Under the pieces are notes generated by a model that saw only the letters and a list, made by a program, of their open reading frames with translations, was not told the DNA's origin and searched no databases. This document shows positions 15,730 through 60,519 of a stretch of 64,000 nt of DNA, one piece after another. The DNA comes from Escherichia phage vB_vPM_PD114: the sequence record MH675927.1; one strand, written 5' to 3'. The translations under genes were made by a program, and so were the position numbers. The first letter of the stretch is position 1. Each line of letters begins with the position of its first letter.

Positions 15730-16137
15730 CTAATTAACGTCAGCACTATGATTGTTGAGAGTATAGGATACTCCATCGCCCAAGTCAACATGAATCTCAA
15801 CTCCTAATTGTCTTTCTAATGGTAAACGTTTTGAGAATTGATAATTACAAAGTTTACAGTCTAAGTCAAGCAACTCATGTTTGCTTAAACCTGCAACGAT
15901 AACTTTGCTTCCTACTGTCCACTCAATACCTTCAAAGTTATCTCTTCTTTTCAAAATGTCAAGTAAGAAGATGATTTGTTGCCATTCCGTAGACAAGTCT
16001 TCTTCATAGAATGCAGAACAAAAAGTTTTATCATCGTAGAAAGCATACATTATGCCTCCATCTATTGTTTCACTTCTAACGTAACGTGTGACCCTCATTA
16101 TTCCCTCCTGTATGGCTCTGTAACGAGCTAATAGCAC
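15730..16137 (-). CDS. hypothetical protein (135 aa), first gene of the minus-strand block
   Basis: ATG preceded by CAGGAGGG; ORF track. Confidence 0.4.
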   Translation of the reverse strand: MLLARYRAIQEGIMRVTRYVRSETIDGGIMYAFYDDKTFCSAFYEEDLSTEWQQIIFLLDILKRRDNFEGIEWTVGSKVIVAGLSKHELLDLDCKLCNYQFSKRLPLERQLGVEIHVDLGDGVSYTLNNHSADVN

Positions 16138-16228
16138 CTAAGATATGCAATCACCTTACCTCACAGTAAAACTCGTTACAATCGTTTTTAGGAGGTTCAG
16201 GTTGTACTTAAAAATAATCTAAAAGGTG

Positions 16229-16257
16229 TTGACAAACGCAAAAAAGTATGCTACCCT
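16229..16257 (+). promoter_or_regulatory. sigma70-like promoter TTGACA-N17-TACCCT
   Basis: Read directly; followed by GC-rich inverted repeat CCCCCG...CGAGGGGG. Confidence 0.35.
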
Positions 16258-16437
16258 AACCCCCGAAAAACGCCGAGCGCAGCGAGGGGGTGTTATCTAA
16301 TCTTGTGATACATGATCTAACAGACAACTGAGTAGTCTACATATAGCACTATGTTATGTCTATAATACTAACATACATGCTCTATACTAACAATAGATTA
16401 TTTATTAATTTTATTATTAATTAAATAATAAATATCT

Positions 16438-16466
16438 ATTGACTTTAGATCTATCTGTATGTAGAG
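16438..16466 (+). promoter_or_regulatory. sigma70-like promoter TTGACT-N17-TAGAGT with AT-rich UP-like element upstream
   Basis: Read directly; ~40 nt before the Prs-like gene start. Confidence 0.5.
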
Positions 16467-16506
16467 TAGAGAACATAAAGTCCTAACGCAACTAAGGAGA
16501 TAAAGA

Positions 16507-17400
16507 ATGAAAGTTAGTATTCTGCATGGTGTTGACTGTTATGTTACTGATGTAGACGTTAAAGTGTTTACATTCTCTGGTGGAGAACAACATGTTCAAT
16601 TAGATACGAATCTATCAGGTTTCAATCATGCTACAGACAGAATCTTACTCACTTTAGAAGTAAGATCTGCTAAAGACTTGATGACTTTGGTTATGACTAA
16701 GAATGCATTGGACAATATGCTATATCATAAACCATATTGTGTTGATTTACTCATGTTGTATGTGCCGTATGCACGACAAGACAGAGTGTGTGAGCCTGGG
16801 GAAGCATTCGGAGTTAAAGCATTTGCTTCTATAATTAATTCATTAAATTTCTCACGTGTTATCGTTGCTGATCCGCATAGTGATGTTACTCCAGCAGTGT
16901 TTGACAGACTCTGTGTAATACCTCAAGAGGAGATTGCTTACGAAACTTTAAAGTGGAAGTTACGTATGGAGAATTTTGCTCTTGTTAGCCCTGATGGTGG
17001 TGCTCTTAAGAAAATATTTAAATTATCTAAGAAAATGTCTTTAGATGTGTTCTGTGCAGAGAAGGTTAGAGATACCGCAACAGGTGCTATTGTTCGTACA
17101 GACATTTCTGTACAGGATTTCAATAAGCGTAACCTGATGATCGTAGATGATATCTGTGATGGTGGTAGAACTTTTATTGAATTGGCTAAAGTGCTACGTG
17201 CTCGTAACGCAGGTAAGATTGAGTTATATGTTACACACGGTATCTTCTCTAAAGGTCTTAAAGAGTTGAGTGAACACTTTGACTGCATTCATTCTCTTAA
17301 TGTGTGGGAAGATAACATCCAAGAAGATTCCGGTGTTCTTGTTAAGAATCAGTCAGATTTGCAACAACAAATTGTATCTCCATACGTGTGGAATTTTTAA
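16507..17400 (+). CDS. PRPP-synthetase-family pyrophosphokinase; candidate ADP-ribose pyrophosphokinase (Adps) of NARP1
   Basis: PYARQDR, LVSPDGGALKK, LMIVDDICDGGRTF, VTHGIFSKG align with Prs motifs (PYFGYARQDRR, VVSPDIGG, VLVDDMIDTGGT, ATHPIFSG); RBS AGGAG; followed by NAMPT-like gene. Confidence 0.7.
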   Translation: MKVSILHGVDCYVTDVDVKVFTFSGGEQHVQLDTNLSGFNHATDRILLTLEVRSAKDLMTLVMTKNALDNMLYHKPYCVDLLMLYVPYARQDRVCEPGEAFGVKAFASIINSLNFSRVIVADPHSDVTPAVFDRLCVIPQEEIAYETLKWKLRMENFALVSPDGGALKKIFKLSKKMSLDVFCAEKVRDTATGAIVRTDISVQDFNKRNLMIVDDICDGGRTFIELAKVLRARNAGKIELYVTHGIFSKGLKELSEHFDCIHSLNVWEDNIQEDSGVLVKNQSDLQQQIVSPYVWNF

Positions 17401-17471: not shown

Positions 17472-19205
17472 ATGAATATTTTTGCACCTTTTGCTACTGA
17501 TTGGTACAAACCTGGTCACAAGCAGATGTACAATCAAAATACAAAACTCATTTTCTCTAATTTAACTCCTCGTAATGATAAAAACTTTGCACACTATGCA
17601 GATCGTGAAGCACGTGGTGTGATTGTTTTAGGTATTCGTCGAGCAGTCACTGATGCTCTTGTAACTATGTGGGATAGCTTCTTTAAAATGTCTCGTAGTG
17701 CAGCAGTAAATAAATTTTATCGTATGTCTAAAAATGCATTAGGTGCTTCTGCTCCTTCTGCTGAATGTTGGGGAGAATTGCACGATTTAGGTTATCTTCC
17801 GCTGGAAGTTCGATCTCTGCCAGAAGGTGTTTTGTGTCCTATTGGTGTTCCTGTGTTTACTGTGCATAATACTTTAGAAAAATTCTTTTGGTTAACTAAC
17901 TATGTGGAAACACTGTTGTCAGATGAAACTTGGAAGACAATGACTAATGCCACAGCAGCTTTTCAGTATAAGCGTATCGCTATGGCATATGCGATGGCAA
18001 CGTGTGATAATATTGATCACGTTAACTTCCAGTGTCATGACTTTAGCCTACGTGGTTTAAGTAATATCGAAGATGGTTATAAGAGTGGTATCGCTCACTT
18101 GGCATCGTTCACAGGAACAGATAATATTCTGGCTATTGAAACTGTGCATGACTATTATGGTATTGATTATGATCAGTTTGTTGCAGGTTCTATTCCGGCA
18201 ACAGAACATTCAGTAGCAACGACTAACATTGGAGCTATTGTTGAAGATCTGAAGAAACATTTCCCACATCTTAAAGATGATGTAGATGGGCTTCGTTATG
18301 TAGCAGAAAAAGAGTTTCTTCGTCGTTATATCGAAGAAATTGTTCCAGAAGGTTTTTGTTCATATGTAGCAGACTCTTATGACTATTGGGCTGTATTGAC
18401 TCGCATTCTGGTAGAATTGAAAGATTCCATTATGTCACGAAATGGTCGTCTTGTTATTCGTCCAGATTCAGGAGATCCGGTTAAAGTTGTTGCAGGATAC
18501 AATGTTGAATCTTTTGATAACTATGAAGACCTCTTAAATAATGGTATTGCGACAGCCACTGAAGTAGTTCATTTGGCTGATGTTAATAAGTATTACAATG
18601 TTCTTCAGGATTGCAGTGTTGCTGACTGTATTGATGAAACTTATGAGATTCCTTATTGTGAAGCAGTAGGTTCTATTCAAATCCTTTGGGAAGTGTTTGG
18701 TGGTACTATCAACCGAAAAGGCTACAAGGTTCTTGATCAGCATATCGGTATGATTTATGGTGATTCTATTACTGTTGAACGAGAACACGAGATCTTACGC
18801 CGACTGAAGAAGAAAGGTTTTGCAGCTTCCAATATTGTATTTGGTGTTGGTAGTTATACTTATCAGTTCAATACACGAGATACTTTTGGTTTTGCTGTTA
18901 AAGCAACAGGTAGTATTATCGGTGAACACGAAATTTTGGTAAGTAAGGAGCCTAAAACTGATCCTGGTAAACGCTCTGCAAAAGGTTTTATTAAGGTTGT
19001 TAAGGATACCAATGGTAATCTGTCTCTTGTAGATAATCTTTCTTTTAAAGATATCCAGGATGAAGACAATGAGTTACAAGTTATCTTCAAGGATGGTAAG
19101 GTTATTACACCACAAGTAGAAGGCCGTGATGAAACATTCACTGATATCCGCAACCGTGTTGACGTAGAGGTTCTTCGTACTATGGGAACCATCCAGGTTG
19201 ACTAA
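17472..19205 (+). CDS. nicotinamide phosphoribosyltransferase-family protein; candidate nicotinamide ADPR transferase (Namat) of NARP1
   Basis: 577 aa, NAMPT/NadV-like length and motifs (e.g. SIPATEHSVATT, GDSITVE); RBS AAGGAG; immediately downstream of the Prs-like gene. Confidence 0.7.
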   Translation: MNIFAPFATDWYKPGHKQMYNQNTKLIFSNLTPRNDKNFAHYADREARGVIVLGIRRAVTDALVTMWDSFFKMSRSAAVNKFYRMSKNALGASAPSAECWGELHDLGYLPLEVRSLPEGVLCPIGVPVFTVHNTLEKFFWLTNYVETLLSDETWKTMTNATAAFQYKRIAMAYAMATCDNIDHVNFQCHDFSLRGLSNIEDGYKSGIAHLASFTGTDNILAIETVHDYYGIDYDQFVAGSIPATEHSVATTNIGAIVEDLKKHFPHLKDDVDGLRYVAEKEFLRRYIEEIVPEGFCSYVADSYDYWAVLTRILVELKDSIMSRNGRLVIRPDSGDPVKVVAGYNVESFDNYEDLLNNGIATATEVVHLADVNKYYNVLQDCSVADCIDETYEIPYCEAVGSIQILWEVFGGTINRKGYKVLDQHIGMIYGDSITVEREHEILRRLKKKGFAASNIVFGVGSYTYQFNTRDTFGFAVKATGSIIGEHEILVSKEPKTDPGKRSAKGFIKVVKDTNGNLSLVDNLSFKDIQDEDNELQVIFKDGKVITPQVEGRDETFTDIRNRVDVEVLRTMGTIQVD

Positions 19206-19952: not shown

Positions 19953-20028
19953 GGTTCCATAGCTCACTGACGAGAGCGCACACCTCATAAGTGTCGAGGG
20001 CAGGGATTGTAACCCTGGGGAACCACCA
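19953..20028 (+). tRNA. tRNA-Met(CAT)-like, atypical T-loop
   Basis: Acceptor GGTTCC/GGAACC (position 7 mismatched), D-stem GCTC/GAGC, anticodon loop CTCATAA, T-arm CAGGG-ATTGTAA-CCCTG, encoded CCA. Hand-folded. Confidence 0.4.
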
Positions 20029-20059
20029 TTTAAAAGGAGATGCTATGCATCTCCTATAT

Positions 20060-20145
20060 GCAAGTGTGGTGGAATTGGTGATACACATTGTGCTTAAAAC
20101 GCAACGCTTAAATGATTGAGGGTTCGAATCCCTCCACTTGCACCA
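20060..20145 (+). tRNA. tRNA-Leu(TAA), class II
   Basis: Acceptor GCAAGTG/CACTTGC, anticodon loop CTTAAAA, long variable arm, T-arm GAGGG-TTCGAAT-CCCTC, discriminator A, CCA encoded. Confidence 0.6.
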
Positions 20146-20147
20146 AC

Positions 20148-20253
20148 GCCTAGTAGGGTATTTGGTAATTCCGAGGCCATCAAAGCCTGAAAAATATGTT
20201 AGACCGCTTTGTCTAACTAAATACGAAATATGGTTCGATTCCATAACTAGGCT
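20148..20253 (+). tRNA. tRNA-like element, unusually long (106 nt); possible pseudo-tRNA or tRNA with insertion
   Basis: Perfect acceptor pairing GCCTAGT/ACTAGGC and T-arm TATGG-TTCGATT-CCATA, but 74 nt between them with internal 7-bp hairpin GTTAGAC/GTCTAAC. Confidence 0.25.
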
Positions 20254-20285
20254 TCAATTTAAATAATAATTTTAGTAAAAATATC

Positions 20286-20314
20286 TTGACATTCACTTAG
20301 TTTTTTGTTATAGT
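20286..20314 (+). promoter_or_regulatory. sigma70-like promoter TTGACA-N17-TATAGT
   Basis: Read directly; ~12 nt upstream of next tRNA. Confidence 0.5.
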
Positions 20315-20325
20315 TACTGTGAAAA

Positions 20326-20407
20326 CGGGGTGTATCTCACCTGACTTCTAATCAGGCGTTAACCGAGTAATTGGAGTATGCAGGTTCGAATCCTGTCACC
20401 CCGACCA
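20326..20407 (+). tRNA. tRNA-like with Arg(TCT)-type anticodon arm, atypical D region
   Basis: Acceptor CGGGGTG/CACCCCG, T-arm GCAGG-TTCGAAT-CCTGT, CCA encoded; hairpin CCTGA-CTTCTAA-TCAGG only 7 nt after acceptor, no D-arm found by hand. Confidence 0.4.
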
Positions 20408-20425
20408 AAAAGTTTTAAAAACTAC

Positions 20426-20455
20426 TTGACAAGCAAGATAGTTTTATGTTAGATT
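20426..20455 (+). promoter_or_regulatory. sigma70-like promoter TTGACA-N18-TAGATT
   Basis: Read directly. Confidence 0.4.
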
Positions 20456-20470
20456 TAAAGTATGATAACG

Positions 20471-20560
20471 GGAAGGTAGGGCGCAGCGGTGCGCAACCAG
20501 GTTTGAACCCTGGCCCATTGTAGCGATACGGTGATGGTTCGACTCCATTATCTTCCTCCA
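20471..20560 (+). tRNA. tRNA-Ser(TGA), class II
   Basis: Acceptor GGAAGGT/ATCTTCC (one G-U), anticodon arm CCAGG-TTTGAAC-CCTGG, long variable arm, T-arm GATGG-TTCGACT-CCATT, CCA encoded. Confidence 0.55.
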
Positions 20561-20578
20561 AATTCAACTAGGAGCTTT

Positions 20579-20731
20579 ATGAATTATAAAACTATTGGAC
20601 AGGTTGTTACCGGAGTTAAGATTGTAGATAATAAAGTTGTTTATGAGTATTCTAATCTTCAACAATCTGAAGATGGTAAAAATATTCGTATGGTAAAAGC
20701 AGAACAAAAAGATTCCGGTTGTTTTGAATAA
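20579..20731 (+). CDS. hypothetical small protein (50 aa; track ORF 20531-20731 trimmed to avoid tRNA overlap)
   Basis: TAGGAGC...ATG at 20579 right after tRNA-Ser. Confidence 0.3.
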   Translation: MNYKTIGQVVTGVKIVDNKVVYEYSNLQQSEDGKNIRMVKAEQKDSGCFE

Positions 20732-20739
20732 TTAAGAAC

Positions 20740-20825
20740 GGTAGATTGGTGAAATGGTAGCCACAACAGTTTGCTAAACTGTCGTCGGAAACGGCGTGTA
20801 GGTTCAAGTCCTACATCTACCGCCA
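20740..20825 (+). tRNA. tRNA-Ser(GCT), class II
   Basis: Acceptor GGTAGAT/ATCTACC, anticodon arm ACAGT-TTGCTAA-ACTGT, long variable arm, T-arm GTAGG-TTCAAGT-CCTAC, discriminator G, CCA encoded. Confidence 0.6.
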
Positions 20826-20845
20826 AATTTATGCGAGGAGGATGT

Positions 20846-21226
20846 ATGCCAAGCAATGATTATATGCGGGAATACATGAAAACTCGGTGGCAGAAGCGAA
20901 GAGCTTCCGCAATCCTCCAGCTTGGAGGTAAATGTGTTAATTGTGGGTCTGTAGATGACTTGGAATTTGATCATAAAGATTCAAGCGAGAAGAAGTTTTA
21001 TATTAGTCGAATGAGTTCATGCTCTGAGGCTAAATGGCAGGAAGAACTTGCCAAATGTCAACTTTTGTGCCATGACTGTCACATGAAGAAGACAAGAATA
21101 TCCCAAGACATGGGAAACAGAATTAGAACAACGGTGTGTGTTTGCGGGGCAGTATTTTATAGTACAAAGGCTTATGCTGGACATACACGGTGGTGTAAAG
21201 AGTATGCATCGTTAGCCAAGCGGTAA
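20846..21226 (+). CDS. HNH endonuclease (free-standing, inside tRNA cluster)
   Basis: CVNCGSVDDLEFDHKD...CQLLCHDCHMKK...C-terminal Cys/His cluster; RBS GAGGAGG; last ~7 codons overlap the 5' end of the following tRNA. Confidence 0.55.
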   Translation: MPSNDYMREYMKTRWQKRRASAILQLGGKCVNCGSVDDLEFDHKDSSEKKFYISRMSSCSEAKWQEELAKCQLLCHDCHMKKTRISQDMGNRIRTTVCVCGAVFYSTKAYAGHTRWCKEYASLAKR

Positions 21227-21280
21227 GGCACTTGACTTTTAATCAAGGGAGCGAAGGTTCGAATCCTTCACGATGTACCA
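21206..21280 (+). tRNA. tRNA-Lys(TTT)
   Basis: Acceptor GCATCGT/ACGATGT (G1-U72), D-stem GCC/GGC, anticodon arm CTTGA-CTTTTAA-TCAAG, T-arm GAAGG-TTCGAAT-CCTTC, CCA encoded. Confidence 0.55.
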
Positions 21281-21285
21281 AACAC

Positions 21286-21372
21286 GTAGGTATCGCATAG
21301 CGGCAATTGCTGGAGACTGTAAATCTCCTGCCCTTCGGGGCTTCGTTGGTTCGAGTCCAACTACCTGCACCA
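21286..21372 (+). tRNA. tRNA-Tyr(GTA), class II
   Basis: Acceptor GTAGGTA/TACCTGC, anticodon arm GGAGA-CTGTAAA-TCTCC, long variable arm, T-arm GTTGG-TTCGAGT-CCAAC, discriminator A, CCA. Confidence 0.55.
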
Positions 21373-21379
21373 AATTAAA

Positions 21380-21464
21380 GATGGATTGGCCTAGTGGTTG
21401 GGCGACGGACTGTTAATCCGTGAACGAAAGTTCTAGCAAGGTTCAAATCCTTGATCCATCGCCA
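21380..21464 (+). tRNA. class II (Ser-like architecture) tRNA with GTT anticodon
   Basis: Acceptor GATGGAT/ATCCATC, 3-bp D-stem GCC/GGC, anticodon arm ACGGA-CTGTTAA-TCCGT, 15-nt variable hairpin GAAC-GAAA-GTTC, T-arm CAAGG-TTCAAAT-CCTTG, discriminator G, CCA. Confidence 0.45.
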
Positions 21465-21471
21465 GAATTAT

Positions 21472-21548
21472 GGACTTGTAGAGTTAAGGTAAACCCTCAG
21501 TCGCAAAGAGGCTTCTGGAATTGCAGGTATCGAATCCTGCCGAGTCCA
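21472..21548 (+). tRNA. tRNA, anticodon unresolved
   Basis: Acceptor GGACTTG/CGAGTCC, T-arm GCAGG-(T)ATCGAAT-CCTGC with 8-nt loop; anticodon arm could not be folded unambiguously (possible loop GTCGCAA). Confidence 0.35.
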
Positions 21549-21554
21549 ATTATT

Positions 21555-21629
21555 GCTCCTATCGTATAACGGCTATTACGGTTGCCTTGTAAGCAACTTA
21601 TCAGGGTTCGAGTCCTTGTGGGAGCACCA
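21555..21629 (+). tRNA. tRNA-Thr(TGT)
   Basis: Acceptor GCTCCTA/TGGGAGC, anticodon arm GTTGC-CTTGTAA-GCAAC, T-arm CAGGG-TTCGAGT-CCTTG, CCA encoded. Confidence 0.55.
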
Positions 21630-21652
21630 ATTTTAACTCTAAAGGAGTGTAT

Positions 21653-21976
21653 GTGACAGAAAAAGAGTTAGAGAAATATTTTAATATCAATGTTTTCGAT
21701 GGTTTTGATGATATTGAAGATGTTGAAAGATATTATGAAGTAGAGTTAGATAAGGATAACATTGTAATTCTTTCTGCCACTTATGATTGTGCATATTATG
21801 AAGGTGAATCTCACGTTTATTTTTATGATATGAAAACATCTTTGTTTTATGAAGTACACGCATATCATTGTTCTTGTTATGGTTTAGAAGGTCAGTGGGA
21901 ACCTGAAGAAATAGGTGATTTGAGCTTTACGGTTGCATATCTAAACAGACGTGGTGCATCTACTATTTTAAAATAA
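21653..21976 (+). CDS. hypothetical acidic protein (107 aa) inside tRNA cluster
   Basis: AGGAG then GTG at 21653 (track start 21647 overlaps the RBS); ORF track. Confidence 0.4.
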   Translation: MTEKELEKYFNINVFDGFDDIEDVERYYEVELDKDNIVILSATYDCAYYEGESHVYFYDMKTSLFYEVHAYHCSCYGLEGQWEPEEIGDLSFTVAYLNRRGASTILK

Positions 21977-21990
21977 ATATTAAAAGCCTC

Positions 21991-22020
21991 TTGACAAAGG
22001 GGCTAATAATATGTTAGAGT
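21991..22020 (+). promoter_or_regulatory. sigma70-like promoter TTGACA-N18-TAGAGT
   Basis: Read directly; precedes tRNA-Gly. Confidence 0.45.
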
Positions 22021-22031
22021 AATATTGTTAA

Positions 22032-22106
22032 GCGGGTATAGTGTTAATGGTAGCATATGAGGTTTCCACCCTCCAGGTGCAGGTTCAAGTCCTGTTACTC
22101 GCTCCA
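22032..22106 (+). tRNA. tRNA-Gly(TCC)
   Basis: Acceptor GCGGGTA/TACTCGC, anticodon loop TTTCCAC, T-arm GCAGG-TTCAAGT-CCTGT, CCA encoded. Confidence 0.5.
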
Positions 22107-22537
22107 AGATTATTTAAATGGAATCGCTAGAGAAAATTTCTCTTTTCGCTCATGGTTTTCTCCTTCAAACTCTAGCGGTTCTTTTTAAGTGATTTTTTAG
22201 TTTATTGGAGATTCACTGCCTTAGTGTGAGCTAAAATCGAGGAGCCATCGAACTGTCTGATTAATGATTTGCGAATCATTATAGTTTTAAGACCCCGGCA
22301 GTTTTATGGTGTACCTCTTGAATGTGAATGATGACGGGTTTATGGTTATCCTGGTCGTTAAATATCCAAAAACCTATGTTCCCCTTGAGGGCTTGCGCAG
22401 GCAATGCCAATAAGTCCTGCATTTTCATTTAAAAGAGAATTTATAATGGAAAAAGATGAACTTAAGTATGCTAAGCCTCTGGCTTCTGCTGCACGAAAAG
22501 CAGTTCGTCACTTTGTGGTAACACTGAAGTAATTTAT

Positions 22538-22612
22538 TGGAGATTAGCCTAGTGGGAAGGCAACGGCCTTTGAAGTCGTGATGACTAGGTTCGATTCCTA
22601 GATCTCCAGCCA
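22538..22612 (+). tRNA. tRNA-Gln(TTG)
   Basis: Acceptor TGGAGAT/ATCTCCA, D-stem GCC/GGC, anticodon arm ACGGC-CTTTGAA-GTCGT, T-arm CTAGG-TTCGATT-CCTAG, CCA. Confidence 0.5.
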
Positions 22613-22619
22613 AGATTTA

Positions 22620-22695
22620 CAGTGCGTAGCGCAGTTGGTAGCGTGGGAGCCTTGGACGCTTCAGGTCGCAGGTTCGAGTCCTGCCGCACTGACCA
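22620..22695 (+). tRNA. tRNA-Pro(TGG)
   Basis: Acceptor CAGTGCG/CGCACTG (C1-G72), anticodon arm GGAGC-CTTGGAC-GCTTC, T-arm GCAGG-TTCGAGT-CCTGC, CCA. Confidence 0.55.
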
Positions 22696-22700
22696 AATTT

Positions 22701-22775
22701 GCAGAGATAGCTGAGACGGATTAGTGCTACCCTGAAAAGGTAGAAAGGATGGATCGTTACCATCTCTCTGCACCA
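22701..22775 (+). tRNA. tRNA-Phe(GAA)
   Basis: Acceptor GCAGAGA/TCTCTGC, anticodon arm CTACC-CTGAAAA-GGTAG, T-arm GATGG-ATCGTTA-CCATC (atypical loop), CCA. Confidence 0.5.
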
Positions 22776-22852
22776 AATAACACCATCCAAGGAGTAGACT
22801 TGGTTAACTGTCAATAGCACATTGAGGCTTCTTACAGTGGTGTACTTATTAT

Positions 22853-22937
22853 GGCTAAGTGGTGGAATGGTATACACGATACGCTTAGAACGTATTGCCC
22901 CAAGGGATTGTGAGTTCGAGTCTCACCTTAGCTACCA
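22853..22937 (+). tRNA. tRNA-Leu(TAG), class II
   Basis: Acceptor GGCTAAG/CTTAGCT, anticodon arm ATACG-CTTAGAA-CGTAT, long variable arm, T-arm GTGAG-TTCGAGT-CTCAC, discriminator A, CCA. Confidence 0.55.
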
Positions 22938-22952
22938 AATTATTACAGATTG

Positions 22953-23031
22953 CGCGGGATAGAGGAGTCTGGTCGTCCTCGCCAGTTTCATATGCTGGAG
23001 ATCATCGGTTCAAATCCGATTCCCGCCTCCA
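22953..23031 (+). tRNA. tRNA with CAT anticodon (Met, or Ile2 if lysidine-modified), C1:C72 mismatch
   Basis: Acceptor CGCGGGA/TCCCGCC with unpaired 1:72, D-stem GAGG/CCTC, anticodon arm CCAGT-TTCATAT-GCTGG, T-arm ATCGG-TTCAAAT-CCGAT, CCA. Confidence 0.45.
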
Positions 23032-23089
23032 CTAAATACCTCCCTTCTGGTGTAATGATTAAATTACATTGACACCTCAAGGAACTCAT

Positions 23090-23172
23090 AGCTGGGTAGA
23101 TTTAAAAGAGTATGGTACTCAATATGGCTCCAAACCATAGATCAAGGGGTTCGATTCCTCACCTTGCTGCCA
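23090..23172 (+). tRNA. tRNA-Trp(CCA)-like, boundaries uncertain
   Basis: Anticodon arm TATGG-CTCCAAA-CCATA, T-loop TTCGATT, 3' CCTTGCT-G-CCA; acceptor pairing has a mismatch, D region long. Confidence 0.3.
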
Positions 23173-23177
23173 ATTAT

Positions 23178-23253
23178 TGTGGTATCGTACAGATGGTTAG
23201 TACACTCGACCGATAATCGAGAAACAACGGTTCGACTCCGTTTACCACGACCA
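23178..23253 (+). tRNA. tRNA-Ile(GAT)
   Basis: Acceptor TGTGGTA/TACCACG, D-stem GTAC/GTAC, anticodon arm CTCGA-CCGATAA-TCGAG, T-arm AACGG-TTCGACT-CCGTT, CCA. Confidence 0.45.
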
Positions 23254-27921: not shown

Positions 27922-29490
27922 GTGTCTACAGGTAAGCGTAAGTACACTAAAAGATCGGATTACTGGAACAAAGGCTCAACTGAAAAAGCTGCACTGTCTC
28001 CAACACAAAGTGCAACTAAAGAGAAGAACTTGGTACTTTCACCAGAAATAGGTACTATTGGTCTTAATTCGATTAAAGCCTTTACGAACTTCATGCAACC
28101 GTATGAAACTCGCTTCCCAGAAAACATCCGAACATACAAAGAAATGGGAGAAGACCCTGACGTAGCTACTGCTCTTGATGCTACGTATATCTTTGTAGAT
28201 AGAGCATTCTTTGATTTTAAAATAAAATACAATGTTAGTTCAGCTAAGTCAAGACGTGCTGCAAAGTTTGTAGACTACACACTTCGCAACATGAATGCAC
28301 CACTAAGACAGTATGTACGCTCCTTGCTAACATATAAGCAATTTGGGTTTGCATTTGCAGAAAAGGTGTATGAACTTGATGAAGATCCAAAAAGCCCGTA
28401 TTTTGGTTATTACCGTCTTGTTAAATTGGCGTTTAGACCCCAGGATACAATTGATTTGGCACAACCTTTCACCTATTCTGATGACGGTCGCACTATTCTT
28501 ACGGTAAACCAAAACATTACTAATGCAATGGTAAGCCCCGGTACTAACGCAACTCTGATAGGAAGAAAAGAAATTCCTATGGAGAAAGTTATTTACGTAG
28601 GGAGCAACATTACAGAGAATAATCCATTAGGTGTAAGCCCACTTCTTGCAGTATATAGAAGTTGGCGTGAAAAATCTCTGATTCAAGAATACGAAGTTGT
28701 TGGTGTTTCGAAAGACTTAGGCGGTATGCCAGTGTTGATGGTTCCAAGTGATATTCTCAACAGGGCATCACTAAACCCAAGCGGGGATGAAGCACAATCT
28801 TTACGTGTTCTGCAAGCAAATATCGCTAACTTACACGCAGGTGAACAATCTTATATGGTGTTACCTTCTGATGTTTATGAAGGTACTGTTATGCGCCAGT
28901 ATGATCTTGTATTCCAAGGTGTTGAGGGTAGTGGTAAGCAATTCGATACACAGGCTCTAATAAAACAACGTAAATTAGATATCTACAACAGATTTGGTGC
29001 AGGTGTTCTGATTATGGGTGATGGAGAAGGTGGTAGTTACTCTTTGTCAGATAACAAACAAACCCTTCTTTCACATTTTATTGAGCGTGATGTAGATATT
29101 ATTACAGAAGCACTAAATACTCAAGTAATTCCCCAACTTCTACGTTTGAACGGTATTTTCTTATCTCAAGAAGATATGCCTAAATTTGTTAGTGACGATA
29201 TTGGTGATCCTGATATTGAAGTTAATGCTAAGGCAATCCAACAAATCGTAGCTGCTGGTGCAATACCATTAACGCCAGAAGTAATTAATGAATTCTTCGA
29301 ACGTTTAGGTTTCAATTATAGAATACCTGATGATATTGTTGCTGATCCAGATAAGTTCCAAGAGTTCCTTGAGACTTTTATGCCAGATAAGACTTCAAGA
29401 TCTGGTGATGGTTTAGCGGCTGGTGCTGGTAATGGAACGTCAACATCTCCTGCTGCATTAGATACATCGGCAGCAAATTTGGCAAATTAA
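27922..29490 (+). CDS. portal protein (putative)
   Basis: 522 aa ORF immediately after terminase; GTG start after GCGGAGG; size and position typical. Confidence 0.55.
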   Translation: MSTGKRKYTKRSDYWNKGSTEKAALSPTQSATKEKNLVLSPEIGTIGLNSIKAFTNFMQPYETRFPENIRTYKEMGEDPDVATALDATYIFVDRAFFDFKIKYNVSSAKSRRAAKFVDYTLRNMNAPLRQYVRSLLTYKQFGFAFAEKVYELDEDPKSPYFGYYRLVKLAFRPQDTIDLAQPFTYSDDGRTILTVNQNITNAMVSPGTNATLIGRKEIPMEKVIYVGSNITENNPLGVSPLLAVYRSWREKSLIQEYEVVGVSKDLGGMPVLMVPSDILNRASLNPSGDEAQSLRVLQANIANLHAGEQSYMVLPSDVYEGTVMRQYDLVFQGVEGSGKQFDTQALIKQRKLDIYNRFGAGVLIMGDGEGGSYSLSDNKQTLLSHFIERDVDIITEALNTQVIPQLLRLNGIFLSQEDMPKFVSDDIGDPDIEVNAKAIQQIVAAGAIPLTPEVINEFFERLGFNYRIPDDIVADPDKFQEFLETFMPDKTSRSGDGLAAGAGNGTSTSPAALDTSAANLAN

Positions 29491-29521
29491 AAATATTTTT
29501 AAAAATTTTTTAATTTAGGTA

Positions 29522-29550
29522 TTGACAAATAAGCAAATATCCTGTAGACT
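29522..29550 (+). promoter_or_regulatory. sigma70-like promoter TTGACA-N17-TAGACT
   Basis: Read directly. Confidence 0.4.
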
Positions 29551-58557: not shown

Positions 58558-60519
58558 GTGATTTTAACACGTCCAAATAGTGCCATTGCAGACATGGTAG
58601 AGTCTCGCTATAGAAAGCGTAGAAGTTTTGCAAGTGGTTTTACCTTAAGAGATGCTCGTGAAGCATTGCTCTTTGAAGCTGACGGTAACTACTATCAGTG
58701 GAAAGGTTCTCTACCTAAAGTTGTACCTGCTAACTCTACTCCTACATCTACTGGAGGGATTTCAGATACAGCTTGGAAAAATGTGGGTAATGCAGATGAC
58801 ATTGCTCAAATAGAATCAGAATTAGATGCTATTGAAGCTGAAATTGAAGATCTTAGAGAATCCATCCCAGAAGCTGGTAAATCAGCTTACCAGATGGCCG
58901 TAGACAATGGTTTCCAAGGTACTGAGACACAGTGGTTGGCTTCTTTAAAAGGTGATCCAGGTGCTCCATTAAAGCTATTAGGGACACTATCTAATACCAA
59001 CCAATTACCTACAAGTGGAAACAATGCAGGGGATGCATGGATTGTAGGCGAGAATATGTATGCTTGGGATGGTACTGCTTGGAGAAAAGTAAACTCACAG
59101 GGGCCAGAAGGTAAATCTGCTTATGAAGTATGGCTTGCAGCAGGAAACGAAGGTACAGAACTAGATTATCTTGCCGCAATTAAAGGTGATAAAGGGGAGC
59201 CTGGCCCAGAGGGGCCACAAGGTGTGCCAGGTAACAATGCTAATGGTTTTGATTACCAAGGTGCAGCTAATTCCGTTTCAGATCTTCCTTCTGCATCTCA
59301 TGGAAACACATCTCAAGCATGGAGTGTTGGTACATATCTATACGTGTCAAACGGTGTAGAATGGATCAATATGGGCGCTATAGTGGGGCCAAAAGGAGAT
59401 AAAGGCGACAAAGGAGATAAGGGTAACACTGGTGATTCAGCTTATCAAGTCTGGTTAAATGCTGGTAACGTTGGTACTATTGACGAATATATTGCCTCTC
59501 TGAAAGGAGAAAAAGGTGATAAGGGAGACAAGGGTGATCAAGGTGAACAGGGTATACAAGGCTTGACGGGGCCAACTGGTGCAGGGTTGACCATTATTGA
59601 CATTCTGACTAGCACTTCTGAACTGCCACAAACTGGAGAAGAGGGTGATGGTTATCTGATCAATAATGAACTTTGGGTCTGGTTGCAAGGAGCCACAGAG
59701 TGGACAAATGTTGGTCGTTTAGCTGGTACTCCAATCACTGCAAAAGGACACGTTGCGTCTGCAAGTGCACTTCCTCCTACAGCTAATTACGGTGATGCTT
59801 ATCTGACGGAAGATACAGGTCATCTTTACATTTACACCTATGATGAACAAACTCAAACTGCTGAATATGTAGATATGGGTAGTTTGAAAGGTGATAAGGG
59901 TGAAAAAGGTGACGCTGGTACTAACGGTACAGACGGTGCAACTTGGATTGTTAAAACAACAGATCCAATCTCTAGTGATGGTAAACAAGGTGATTATGCC
60001 TTTAATATCTCCACTGGCGAGGTGTTCTTAAAAACATCTGCAACTGTCTGGACTTCTCAAGGTACACTACCTAGTATCACAGATGCACCTAGTGATGGTA
60101 AGACTTATGCTCGTAAAGATGGAGCATGGGAAGAACTCACTAGTTCTGTAGATGGTCAAGATATAGTTCCAACAAAAGTAACAACTAATTTTATAGAGGT
60201 TACAGCATATACCAACAATTCTGTTACAGGGGACTGGACACCTCCAGGAACACATAACATGAATGTGTTGAATCTTACTGGTAACTCTACTATAAAAGCA
60301 TGGCCTGGTGTCGAAGATAGCACAAAACCTAAACCATTCTCTGCAATAGTTTATCTTATCCAAGATGCCACTGGAGGTCATACTGTTACTTTAGATCCAT
60401 CTTACAAAGTAATTGGTTCTAGTGATATTAATACAGATCCTAACGGAGTAACAATACTACAACTAACATATTGTGGTGTTGGCGATTACGTGGATGCTAT
60501 TGTTGCTAAACGCACATAA
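58558..60519 (+). CDS. tail fibre protein with collagen-like Gly-X-Y repeats
   Basis: GDKGEPGPEGPQGVPG, GPKGDKGDKGDKGNTGD, GEKGDKGDKGDQGEQGIQGLTGPTG, GDKGEKGDAGTNGTDG; GTG start after AAGGAG. Confidence 0.55.
   Translation: MILTRPNSAIADMVESRYRKRRSFASGFTLRDAREALLFEADGNYYQWKGSLPKVVPANSTPTSTGGISDTAWKNVGNADDIAQIESELDAIEAEIEDLRESIPEAGKSAYQMAVDNGFQGTETQWLASLKGDPGAPLKLLGTLSNTNQLPTSGNNAGDAWIVGENMYAWDGTAWRKVNSQGPEGKSAYEVWLAAGNEGTELDYLAAIKGDKGEPGPEGPQGVPGNNANGFDYQGAANSVSDLPSASHGNTSQAWSVGTYLYVSNGVEWINMGAIVGPKGDKGDKGDKGNTGDSAYQVWLNAGNVGTIDEYIASLKGEKGDKGDKGDQGEQGIQGLTGPTGAGLTIIDILTSTSELPQTGEEGDGYLINNELWVWLQGATEWTNVGRLAGTPITAKGHVASASALPPTANYGDAYLTEDTGHLYIYTYDEQTQTAEYVDMGSLKGDKGEKGDAGTNGTDGATWIVKTTDPISSDGKQGDYAFNISTGEVFLKTSATVWTSQGTLPSITDAPSDGKTYARKDGAWEELTSSVDGQDIVPTKVTTNFIEVTAYTNNSVTGDWTPPGTHNMNVLNLTGNSTIKAWPGVEDSTKPKPFSAIVYLIQDATGGHTVTLDPSYKVIGSSDINTDPNGVTILQLTYCGVGDYVDAIVAKRT
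59390..59580 (+). repeat. collagen-like triplet-repeat coding region (GGN-GAN-AAR periodicity)
   Basis: Nucleotide-level 9-nt periodic repeats ggagataaaggcgacaaaggagataagggt... Confidence 0.5.

Follow-up and report, generated by a model that had tools for sequence, protein, structure and literature searches.

What does the gap between two divergent gene blocks of a phi92-like phage contain, and why is one GC-rich element within it kept so closely? The gap lies in a stretch of 64,000 nucleotides from Escherichia phage vB_vPM_PD114 (sequence record MH675927.1), hereafter called the window, whose source belongs to Justusliebigvirus, the phi92-like E. coli myoviruses (subfamily Stephanstirmvirinae). 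A preliminary description had pictured the gap as a strand-switch control region with tandem promoters, an AT tract and a GC-rich palindrome, possibly holding an origin of replication or an operator. We find that its most conserved part is a promoter fused to a small hairpin, and that this cassette recurs at two other loci of the genome. On balance we think it probable that the gap is the rightward promoter region of a unit formed by prs, a NAMPT-like gene and tRNA genes, with tandem sigma70 promoters (P1 and P2) and with P1 transcripts beginning in the conserved stem-loop.

P1 and a cassette conserved across clades

The strongest conserved island of the gap across clades reads TTGAC-N17/18-TGCTACCCTAA-N11-14-GCCGAGCG(A/C)AGCGAGG. 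It starts at P1, whose -35 hexamer (TTGACA) agrees with the consensus at 6/6 positions, that of P2 (TTGACT) agreeing at 5/6; both spacings are 17 nt. Compared with TATAAT, the -10 hexamer of P2 (TAGAGT) matches at 4/6 positions and that of P1 (TACCCT) at 3/6 (T-12, A-11 and T-7), to which P1 adds a TGn motif. A consensus scan overlooked P1 because its -10 matches at just three positions, and the promoter-like matches that the scan returned in the region, P2 included, numbered 7, against 7.7 +/- 3.4 in shuffles. Since this count is no higher than in shuffles, the case for the promoters is built on conservation and not on the scan. Indeed, the two plus-strand sigma70-like promoters of the preliminary description are both present, at positions that are conserved in Citrobacter phage Tr1 and in Klebsiella-phage relatives.

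The -10 region of P1 is part of an 11-mer, TGCTACCCTAA, which was found in all five fetched clade representatives and has its sole zero-mismatch match in the window at this place. Both TTGAC and the 11-mer are invariant in Justusliebigvirus, Citrobacter Tr1 and the Klebsiella-phage relatives; in copies recovered by pattern search the 11-mer was fixed by the pattern. The whole cassette covers ~70 nt and consists of the -35 hexamer, TGCTACCCTAA, a linker of 7-14 nt and a hairpin of the form CGAGC-G(N)NA-GCGAG with tandem G.A pairs. Every copy has a pyrimidine run and then GAA, AAA or AGA 7-9 nt past the -10. We infer that P1 is active and, from the geometry of sigma70 promoters, that it starts at ~16264-16266.

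Further into the putative leader, a GATCTAACAGAC block with a 17-bp dyad is nearly the same in the window and Tr1, and related TAGATCTA...AGT(A/T)GTCT blocks stand in other type-1 copies, that is, copies before prs. RNAalifold calls no helix at the dyad and, over the rest of the type-1 leader, backs the first hairpin only; the folding of the 179-nt leader is not significantly better than that of shuffles.

We also considered whether TGCTACCCTAA is a special promoter widespread among phages, and dropped the idea. The pattern TTGACW-N14/15-TGCTACCCTAA occurs in 96 IMG/VR stretches (~35-40 independent families), against 17 for a control with GGG for CCC; because this enrichment is modest, matches outside the subfamily may be ordinary extended -10 promoters. 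Three unrelated IMG/VR contigs with the same promoter core, L115 (1561-1600), L116 and L119, have predicted transcripts that likewise begin with a hairpin. The hairpin of L115 is CCAC-GA-GTGC/GCAC-GA-GTGG, again with tandem G.A pairs, and that of L116 holds GGCC-GAGA-GGCC within a perfect terminator-like stem followed by a U-run.

Three copies per genome

In the complete 145-kb genome of the relative Eryne, a motif scan and nhmmer both return exactly three copies of the cassette (E = 1e-22 to 5e-16), the next match having E = 4.6. One of the three corresponds to the single copy of the window. The other two, types 2 and 3, lie elsewhere on the genome (Table 1): type 2 stands 78 nt upstream of a gene for a 66-aa membrane protein, and type 3, an orphan, has no downstream open reading frame (ORF). 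Past the type 3 copy there is a hairpin, TTCCATG...CATGGAA, whose opposite strand resembles the terminator of the upstream early gene.

The recurrence extends beyond one genome. A pattern search found a second copy in a Klebsiella-type IMG/VR contig, ~71 kb from the first. When this second copy was used as a BLAST query, it matched 133 phage records at 301 places, three in each listed Justusliebigvirus record, and the matches also include records named Phapecoctavirus. Furthermore, 36 distinct copies were collected from IMG/VR, metagenomes, and metagenome-assembled genomes (MAGs) and species genomes, mostly on contigs of ~150 kb. We found no description of the cassette in the literature searched or in the GenBank annotations examined.

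In the Klebsiella-type contig (3300030441_000047; L023 4703-7627), the second copy, copy B, precedes a strong hairpin with a U-run; further on come a gene for a small membrane protein, one that is NadR-like (AAA_28) and one for PnuC, a transporter of nicotinamide mononucleotide. Both coding copies of this phage type thus precede salvage genes for nicotinamide adenine dinucleotide (NAD), prs plus the NAMPT-like gene at one and NadR-like plus PnuC at the other. A control element specific for NAD was dropped as a general explanation, since copy 2 of the E. coli phage has no NadR or PnuC downstream and copy 3 has no gene at all. A host mimic or host-derived element was likewise set aside, as no counterpart was found among 5,426 E. 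coli genomes. One occurrence lies far from these phages: in an Ardenticatenaceae (Chloroflexi) MAG (L071 4840-5140; also L036 and L064), TGCTACCCTAA and a CGAGCGAAGCGAG hairpin stand inside a ~280-bp element with inverted ends, resembling a miniature inverted-repeat transposable element (MITE), between bacterial ATP-binding cassette (ABC) transporter genes of a GC-rich genome. This resemblance could be a coincidence or reflect shared ancestry.

A hairpin with a fixed tip and a covarying base

The apical hairpin is built of a C-G pair, the tandem G.A/A.G pairs, a G-C and a C-G pair, closed by a GNA or GNRA-type loop. The core CGAGC-loop-GCGAG is present in all copies, with the loops GAA, GCA, GAUA, GAAA or GUAA, and 12 of the 13 apical bases (all except the loop N) do not differ between the copies examined, a constancy that implies specific recognition.

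Covariation was measured in the flanks, which the search patterns left unconstrained, on a set of 24 distinct sequences. Flank positions pair in 69.8% of cells, against 60.0 +/- 1.8% in shuffles, and the covariation score of the basal helix is 0.309, against 0.144 in shuffles, none of 500 reaching 0.309; with the partner slid by 1-3 columns the score is at most 0.197. The pair adjoining the core (-1/+1) is C-G in 14 sequences, A-U in 7 and U-A in 1, and the third basal pair is formed in 23/24. Frequent G.U pairs, G.A pairs and purine-started G(N)NA loops are seen on the sense strand only, which argues for RNA, or at least for a single-stranded structure, of the same polarity as P1. RNAfold gives the ((..((...))..)) hairpin in 7/8 copies, the exception being the window's own copy. 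The basal helix reaches the putative 5' end, or nearly so; in Klebsiella copy A and in Eryne type 2 the putative first three bases, GAA, pair with UUC past the hairpin.

Two roles by pairing with other targets were considered and rejected. For a trans-acting antisense RNA, the complementarity found elsewhere in the genome was limited to chance matches of 11-14 nt, and anti-Shine-Dalgarno pairing of the post-hairpin segment is clear in the Eryne type-2 leader and is not general.

The palindrome

What, then, of the GC-rich palindrome? The CCCCC...GGGGG element is present, 3 nt further left than the ~16263-16293 first given, at 16260-16290. As a functional unit it does not hold: the arms are missing in relatives, where CCCCC is replaced by ACCC or ACAC and GGGGG by GTAAG or GGGAG, and the length of the 3' G-run varies even within the genus. 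The conserved portion is the inner segment 16272-16287, GCCGAGCGCAGCGAGG, and not the outer arms. Moreover, the palindrome folds no better than shuffles on either strand (z = -0.6 to -1.05), and a start at 16264-16266 would leave most of the CCCCC arm upstream of the P1 RNA. Nor is it an operator or origin element specific to this junction, as the conserved unit is the inner hairpin fused to P1, which recurs at two other loci per genome. The palindrome as first drawn is incidental.

P2 and the AT tract

A promoter at the position of P2 is also found in Tr1 and in the Klebsiella relatives, and an AT tract is conserved across the clades as well. Directly upstream of it the preliminary description had placed a ~50-nt run of A/T (16385-16437); an AT-rich tract is there, its pure A/T run being 39 nt long (16397-16435). 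Positions 16383-16432 contain 6% G+C, the lowest of any 50-nt stretch in the 64 kb, where no other A/T run is as long; in the 145-kb Eryne genome, too, the orthologous tract is extreme on both counts, genome-wide. Its length is polymorphic, with 12-bp tandem duplications in the related records inny, KMB37 and PD06. The inny record annotates the tract (window 16383-16437; L003 1821-1846) as a repeat_region, and the deposited ALITA genome (L005) ends inside it, at the equivalent of window 16392, probably through an assembly or linearisation break.

To place the tract among the other promoters of the phage, TTGAC[AT]-16/18-TAnnnT sites were listed window-wide. About ten intergenic sites have AT-rich sequence upstream, often with TGn, including some before the NAMPT-like gene and some inside the tRNA cluster; the recurrent intergenic form in the window is AT-rich sequence followed by TTGAC[AT]-17/18-(TGn)TAnnnT. 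The claim that the tract is UP-like, in the sense of an upstream promoter element, is therefore reasonable, since AT-rich sequence directly upstream of TTGAC is the usual promoter layout of this phage, and P2 with its tract looks like the ordinary promoter type. The tRNA cluster is interspersed with TTGACA-17/18-TGnTAnnnT promoters (20286, 20426, 21991 and 23409). The second most AT-rich spot of the window (29483-29550), which has an A/T run of 34 nt, immediately precedes TTGACA-17-TAGACT; its place in the collinear Eryne record is between the gene for the portal protein and that for a DNA methyltransferase.

Around the tract, three direct CTAACA repeats lie within 100 nt on one strand, an arrangement found nowhere else in the window or the Eryne genome; 4/300 shuffles reach this density.

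The junction and its flanking genes

Over ~1.3 kb around the gap, identity is 97.7-99.5% among the 30 phage records listed of 55 that match, nearly all of them Justusliebigvirus; with the gap alone as a 406-bp query, the same 55 records matched at 94.5-99.5%. Beyond the genus, Citrobacter phage Tr1 is the sole distant relative with a match at DNA level (70.8% identity over window 16222-16428). Klebsiella phages and one IMG/VR contig were found via the prs protein, and the gene order of the junction is shared with Tr1 and with the Klebsiella phages. The left third of the gap is unalignable across clades. Table 1 collects the features.

Table 1. Features of the strand-switch gap, its flanking genes and the related cassette copies (window positions unless stated otherwise)
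Feature	Position	Strand	Details
First leftward-block gene, phi92 gp106A homologue (122 aa)	15730-16098	-	From the ORF list; annotated coding sequence in phi92, Eryne and inny
P1, sigma70-type putative promoter with extended -10	16229-16257	+	-35 TTGACA 16229-16234; 17-nt spacer; TGc 16249-16251; -10 TACCCT 16252-16257
Invariant 11-mer TGCTACCCTAA	16249-16259	+	Extended -10, -10 hexamer and first two discriminator bases
Palindrome of the preliminary description, CCCCC-N21-GGGGG	16260-16290		CCCCC 16260-16264; GGGGG 16286-16290
Putative P1 transcription start	16264-16266	+	7-9 nt past the -10; first purines after the pyrimidine run
Predicted leader stem-loop	16265-16296	+	Apical part 16274-16286, CGAGC-GCA-GCGAG; flanked by an imperfect basal helix
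GATCTAACAGAC block with 17-bp dyad AGACaACT-G-AGTaGTCT	16314-16338	+	Dyad 16322-16338; nearly invariant between window and Tr1
Three direct CTAACA repeats	16317, 16368, 16387 (16317-16392)	+	Two of three kept in Tr1
AT tract	16383-16437		A/T-only run 16397-16435; partial dyad symmetry; inverted repeats I4, I8, I9; polymorphic length
P2, sigma70-type putative promoter	16439-16467	+	TTGACT 16439-16444; 17 nt; TAGAGT 16462-16467; 9/12 in scan
Ribosome-binding site AAGGAG	16494-16499	+	Before prs
prs	16507-17400	+	Pfam Pribosyltran and Pribosyl_synth; annotations in relatives
NAMPT-like gene	17472-19205	+	Pfam NAPRTase; annotations in relatives
15 tRNA genes	19953-23253	+	Right of the NAMPT-like gene
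Type 1 cassette	Window copy		Before prs
Type 2 cassette	Eryne record 68.6-68.8 kb (L026 18613-18760)	-	2.7 kb inside the leftward replication block
Type 3 cassette	Eryne record 97.65-97.82 kb (L026 47650-47816)	-	-35 TTTACT; antisense into a small early-gene block

The gap does separate a minus-strand from a plus-strand block, as first described, and in the complete Eryne genome it is one of two divergent junctions, the other lying at ~71.4 kb. Its size needs revision, from 370 bp to 408 bp (16099-16506): the left limit is 16099 because the leftward gene begins at ATG 16098-16096, preceded by an AGGAGG ribosome-binding site, and not at GTG 16137, a choice that also fits the annotation of phi92 gp106A. 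This first leftward gene belongs to PHROG 14390, a group of unknown function, and a Pfam search gave no match for it. The leftward block comprises this gene, small genes of unknown function, a Nudix hydrolase, a phosphoesterase and an RNA ligase, and is a nucleotide-metabolism block.

Does the gap also serve the leftward block? A scan of the gap gave no convincing leftward promoter, so that a control region for both blocks stays hypothetical. Two leftward candidates were rejected: TTGTAA(16181)-17-TAAGGT(16153), with 7/12 matches, is not conserved, and neither is TAGACA(16362)-17-TAGACT(16334), with 9/12, which Tr1 does not keep. Relatives carry a clear leftward TTGAC(A/T)-17-TA(T/C)C(A/T)T, whereas the window does not. 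The best leftward sigma70-like promoter near the junction, TTGACT-17-TATACT (10/12; window 15760-15788, minus strand), falls within the coding sequence of the first leftward gene, which may therefore be expressed apart from the rest of its block.

A small ORF in the gap was also considered and rejected: the annotations of Eryne, 92CQ, VEcB, KMB37 and Tr1 disagree in its extent, in the window a 1-nt indel ends the frame after 25 codons, and the ORF list has none of at least 40 aa there. At the other end of the window, positions 59392-59912 contain runs of 9-nt repeats, AAAGGNGAN, whose translation would be collagen-like, with Gly-X-Y stretches, the gene presumably being that of a tail fibre.

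Proposed mechanism and its weight

If the gap is a rightward promoter region, host sigma70 RNA polymerase would start at the two tandem promoters P1 and P2, with the AT tract serving P2 as an UP-like upstream element. At P1, the -35 and the extended -10 within TGCTACCCTAA would direct the start at ~16264-16266. The first ~30 nt of the P1 RNA would fold into a stem-loop with a fixed tip and a base that is variable yet paired, the tandem G.A pairs of the tip being presumably sheared. From the strand-specific pairing we infer that the hairpin acts as RNA, where it would be a cis-acting signal common to three transcription units. It may dock a protein that coordinates the three units, by antitermination of the nut/boxB type or by regulated stability; at the least, it could be a 5'-terminal hairpin that protects the transcripts.

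Several observations weigh against this account. The P1 -10 agrees with the consensus at 3/6 positions only, and the literature search turned up no transcriptome of Stephanstirmvirinae. At the window copy there is no terminator between P1 and prs, which leaves antitermination without an obvious target. Because the search patterns prescribed both the apical stem and the 11-mer, the invariance of these two outside the five fetched clades is partly built in; independent evidence for an invariant core comes from the window, Tr1, the Klebsiella phages and the three Eryne copies only, which were reached by other search routes. Kinship among the sequences inflates the covariation statistics, the shuffle overstating significance and the slid control being fairer. 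Hairpin energies are modest, from -5.5 to -8.7 kcal/mol, and mostly no better than those of shuffles. In type 3 and in L032 the complementary flanks begin right after TAA, upstream of the canonical start, which is more in line with a structure in the DNA or with a start further upstream. The discriminator of several copies is complementary to +4 to +8 (AAAC/GUUU, AACC/GGUU and ACCC/GGGU), and the model leaves this unexplained.

A bolder extension, which we hold to be doubtful, is that the three cassettes form an undescribed phi92-like regulon in which one phage factor reads both the TGCTACCCTAA core and the 5' hairpin with its tandem G.A pairs and GNRA loop. Such a factor might act as an antiterminator of the nut kind, or as a switch or stabiliser that binds RNA.

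Alternative explanations

Could the region instead be, or contain, an origin of replication activated by transcription? P1 would then transcribe into an easily melted AT tract, and the CTAACA repeats and the dyad would be protein sites. The tract lies 120-175 nt downstream of P1 and is, as described above, the genome's lowest-GC 50-mer and longest A/T run; the triple CTAACA cluster is unique in the genome (4/300 shuffles), and the GATCTAACAGAC-plus-dyad block is kept in Tr1. Moreover, the cumulative GC skew has its global minimum at the junction, and the phage has genes for a DNA polymerase of its own and for a primase/helicase fusion. The skew, however, tracks gene orientation and turns at all four strand switches, a confound that is also noted in the paper on the rV5 genome (PMC3606486). 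An AT-rich tract upstream of TTGAC is the promoter style of this phage, the tract stands where an UP element belongs, and a TTGACA likewise adjoins the site that ranks second in AT content in the window. No AT tract accompanies the other two copies of the cassette, and the tract of the gap gains or loses 12 bp freely. A GATC (Dam/SeqA) cluster was looked for and rejected, GATC not being enriched (the 406 bp hold 2 sites, and the genome as a whole has 3.9-4.5 per kb), and no initiator protein or DnaA boxes were identified. An origin at this place thus seems to us unlikely, though it deserves to be kept in mind.

The GC-rich element might also act as DNA, either as an operator overlapping the P1 start or as a GCGNAGC mini-hairpin that is extruded from a single strand, in the transcription bubble or while the DNA replicates, and tunes the three promoters. 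Its GCG(N)AGC matches the GNA DNA mini-hairpin of Hirao and Yoshizawa, which is reportedly very stable. Orthologues and paralogues alike keep the primary sequence from the -10 to ~+30, complementarity in several copies starts inside the discriminator, upstream of the canonical start, and the 11-mer with its hairpin stands inside the MITE-like element of the Chloroflexi MAG. Yet the element is not a dyad, its reverse complement being different, unlike a classic dimer operator. Its flanks change and keep their pairing, and a G.U pair is an A.C mismatch on the other strand, which favours an RNA-type structure on one strand; furthermore, no candidate binding protein was found, the neighbouring genes having no recognisable DNA-binding domain. 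Action as DNA is in our view quite improbable. Scarcely credible is an intrinsic terminator on the minus strand (CGCTGCGCTCGGCG followed by TTTTT) that would insulate the leftward block from read-through or from the leftward promoter at 16362-16334. A scan does report one minus-strand terminator-like site (16284-16271), the inner stem gains slightly on that strand from a T.G wobble, and a weak minus-strand promoter-like match stands at 16362-16334. But the T-run is missing in Tr1 and the Klebsiella relatives (AAACTT and GAACTT), where the inner stem is weaker, and Tr1 does not conserve the putative leftward promoter. Read from the minus strand, the G.A pairs turn into C.U and the G(N)NA loops into loops of pyrimidines, and the other two copies are not placed as terminators. 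As it is not conserved among relatives, the terminator was rejected.

Comparison with known systems

Among known elements, the nut sites of lambdoid phages come to mind. In the cassette, as in nut, a small conserved hairpin with a GNRA-like loop would lie shortly past an early sigma70 promoter, with few copies per genome, one per transcription unit, and a fixed tip in variable surroundings; in Klebsiella-phage copy B, moreover, the hairpin is followed by a terminator-like hairpin and U-run before the first gene. However, no boxA (CGCTCTTA / TGCTCTTTAACA) stands upstream of the cassette hairpin. The sole boxA candidate is TGCTACCCTAA, which differs in the core and is better explained as the -10, 17 nt from the -35. 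The cassette has tandem G.A pairs and a loop of 3-4 nt where nut has a 5-bp stem with a pentaloop, its hairpin is at the very 5' end, and no terminator follows the window copy between P1 and prs. No N-like protein was identified, and no search for one was made. The resemblance to nut is one of layout only.

At gathering scores, Rfam models find only tRNAs in the window. In a permissive scan the top match is GA-cis (RF02987), at window 16187-16301, with 21.1 bits against a gathering score of 34.7. The consensus 3' hairpin of GA-cis, CcGAgcGaAagcGAgG, is the same hairpin of C-G, GA/GA, G-C and C-G pairs with a GNRA loop, but the 5' helix of the model is not conserved in relatives, and in the window it is matched only via an insertion of 60 nt in which the promoter lies. 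Eight other loci, each with a cassette copy, gave no GA-cis match at E <= 1. Membership in GA-cis was thus rejected, the match being below the gathering score and the other copies being without one. The first helix of the model corresponds in the window to a 20-nt segment across P1 (16183-16202 with 16253-16272), where a sequence including AGGAGGTT is 80% complementary to ACCCTAACCCCCGAAAAACG; this complementarity is not conserved outside the genus. GA-cis is not mentioned in the main text of the paper that introduced 224 candidate RNA motifs.

The promoter early stem-loop (PeSL) cassettes of T4-like phages (PMC2839356, PMC4122927) also combine an early sigma70-like promoter with a stem-loop and are repeated in the genome. 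PeSLs are promoter-terminator composites with many copies in hyperplastic regions and loosely conserved stems (PMC4122927). The phi92-like cassette differs in having its hairpin downstream of the -10, in the putative transcript, three copies per genome, and a -10 and a tip that are fixed to the base; given the place of the hairpin and the copy number, it was not assigned to the PeSLs.

Two further comparisons concern the AT tract and the 5' end. At the T7 primary origin and the T4 origins oriF and oriG, an AT-rich unwinding element lies downstream of a promoter whose transcript primes replication or opens the DNA. The gap resembles them in having promoters and then an exceptionally AT-rich tract, at a strand switch, and differs in that the tract is also exactly where the UP element of P2 would be. 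As for stabiliser hairpins at 5' ends, such as that of the ompA 5' untranslated region, the likeness is a stem-loop predicted at or within a few nucleotides of the 5' end, with the putative +1 GAA pairing with the post-hairpin UUC in several copies. Stabilisers need no fixed sequence, however, whereas 12/13 of the apical bases of the cassette are fixed.

Significance

Taken as it was first described, namely as a strand-switch promoter region, the finding is ordinary. One practical consequence is that the small ORFs annotated in the gap by several GenBank records are not genes, and if the AT tract were an origin, it would be the first one mapped in the subfamily. The genome paper of rV5 reports host-type promoters only and no late factors of the T4 type (PMC3606486). 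Were the regulon real, its factor would switch on the prs / NAMPT-like / tRNA unit, a replication-gene unit and the orphan RNA together, the type-3 RNA would be ~120 nt long (estimated by eye) and antisense into the early-gene block, and the regulon would be a new timing mechanism for a large group of phages. The cassette predicts three co-regulated transcripts, a defined target for RNA pull-down and a short orphan RNA. Kept to the base at three places per genome in phages of Escherichia, Citrobacter and Klebsiella, it offers a handle on the order of gene expression in phi92- and rV5-like phages.

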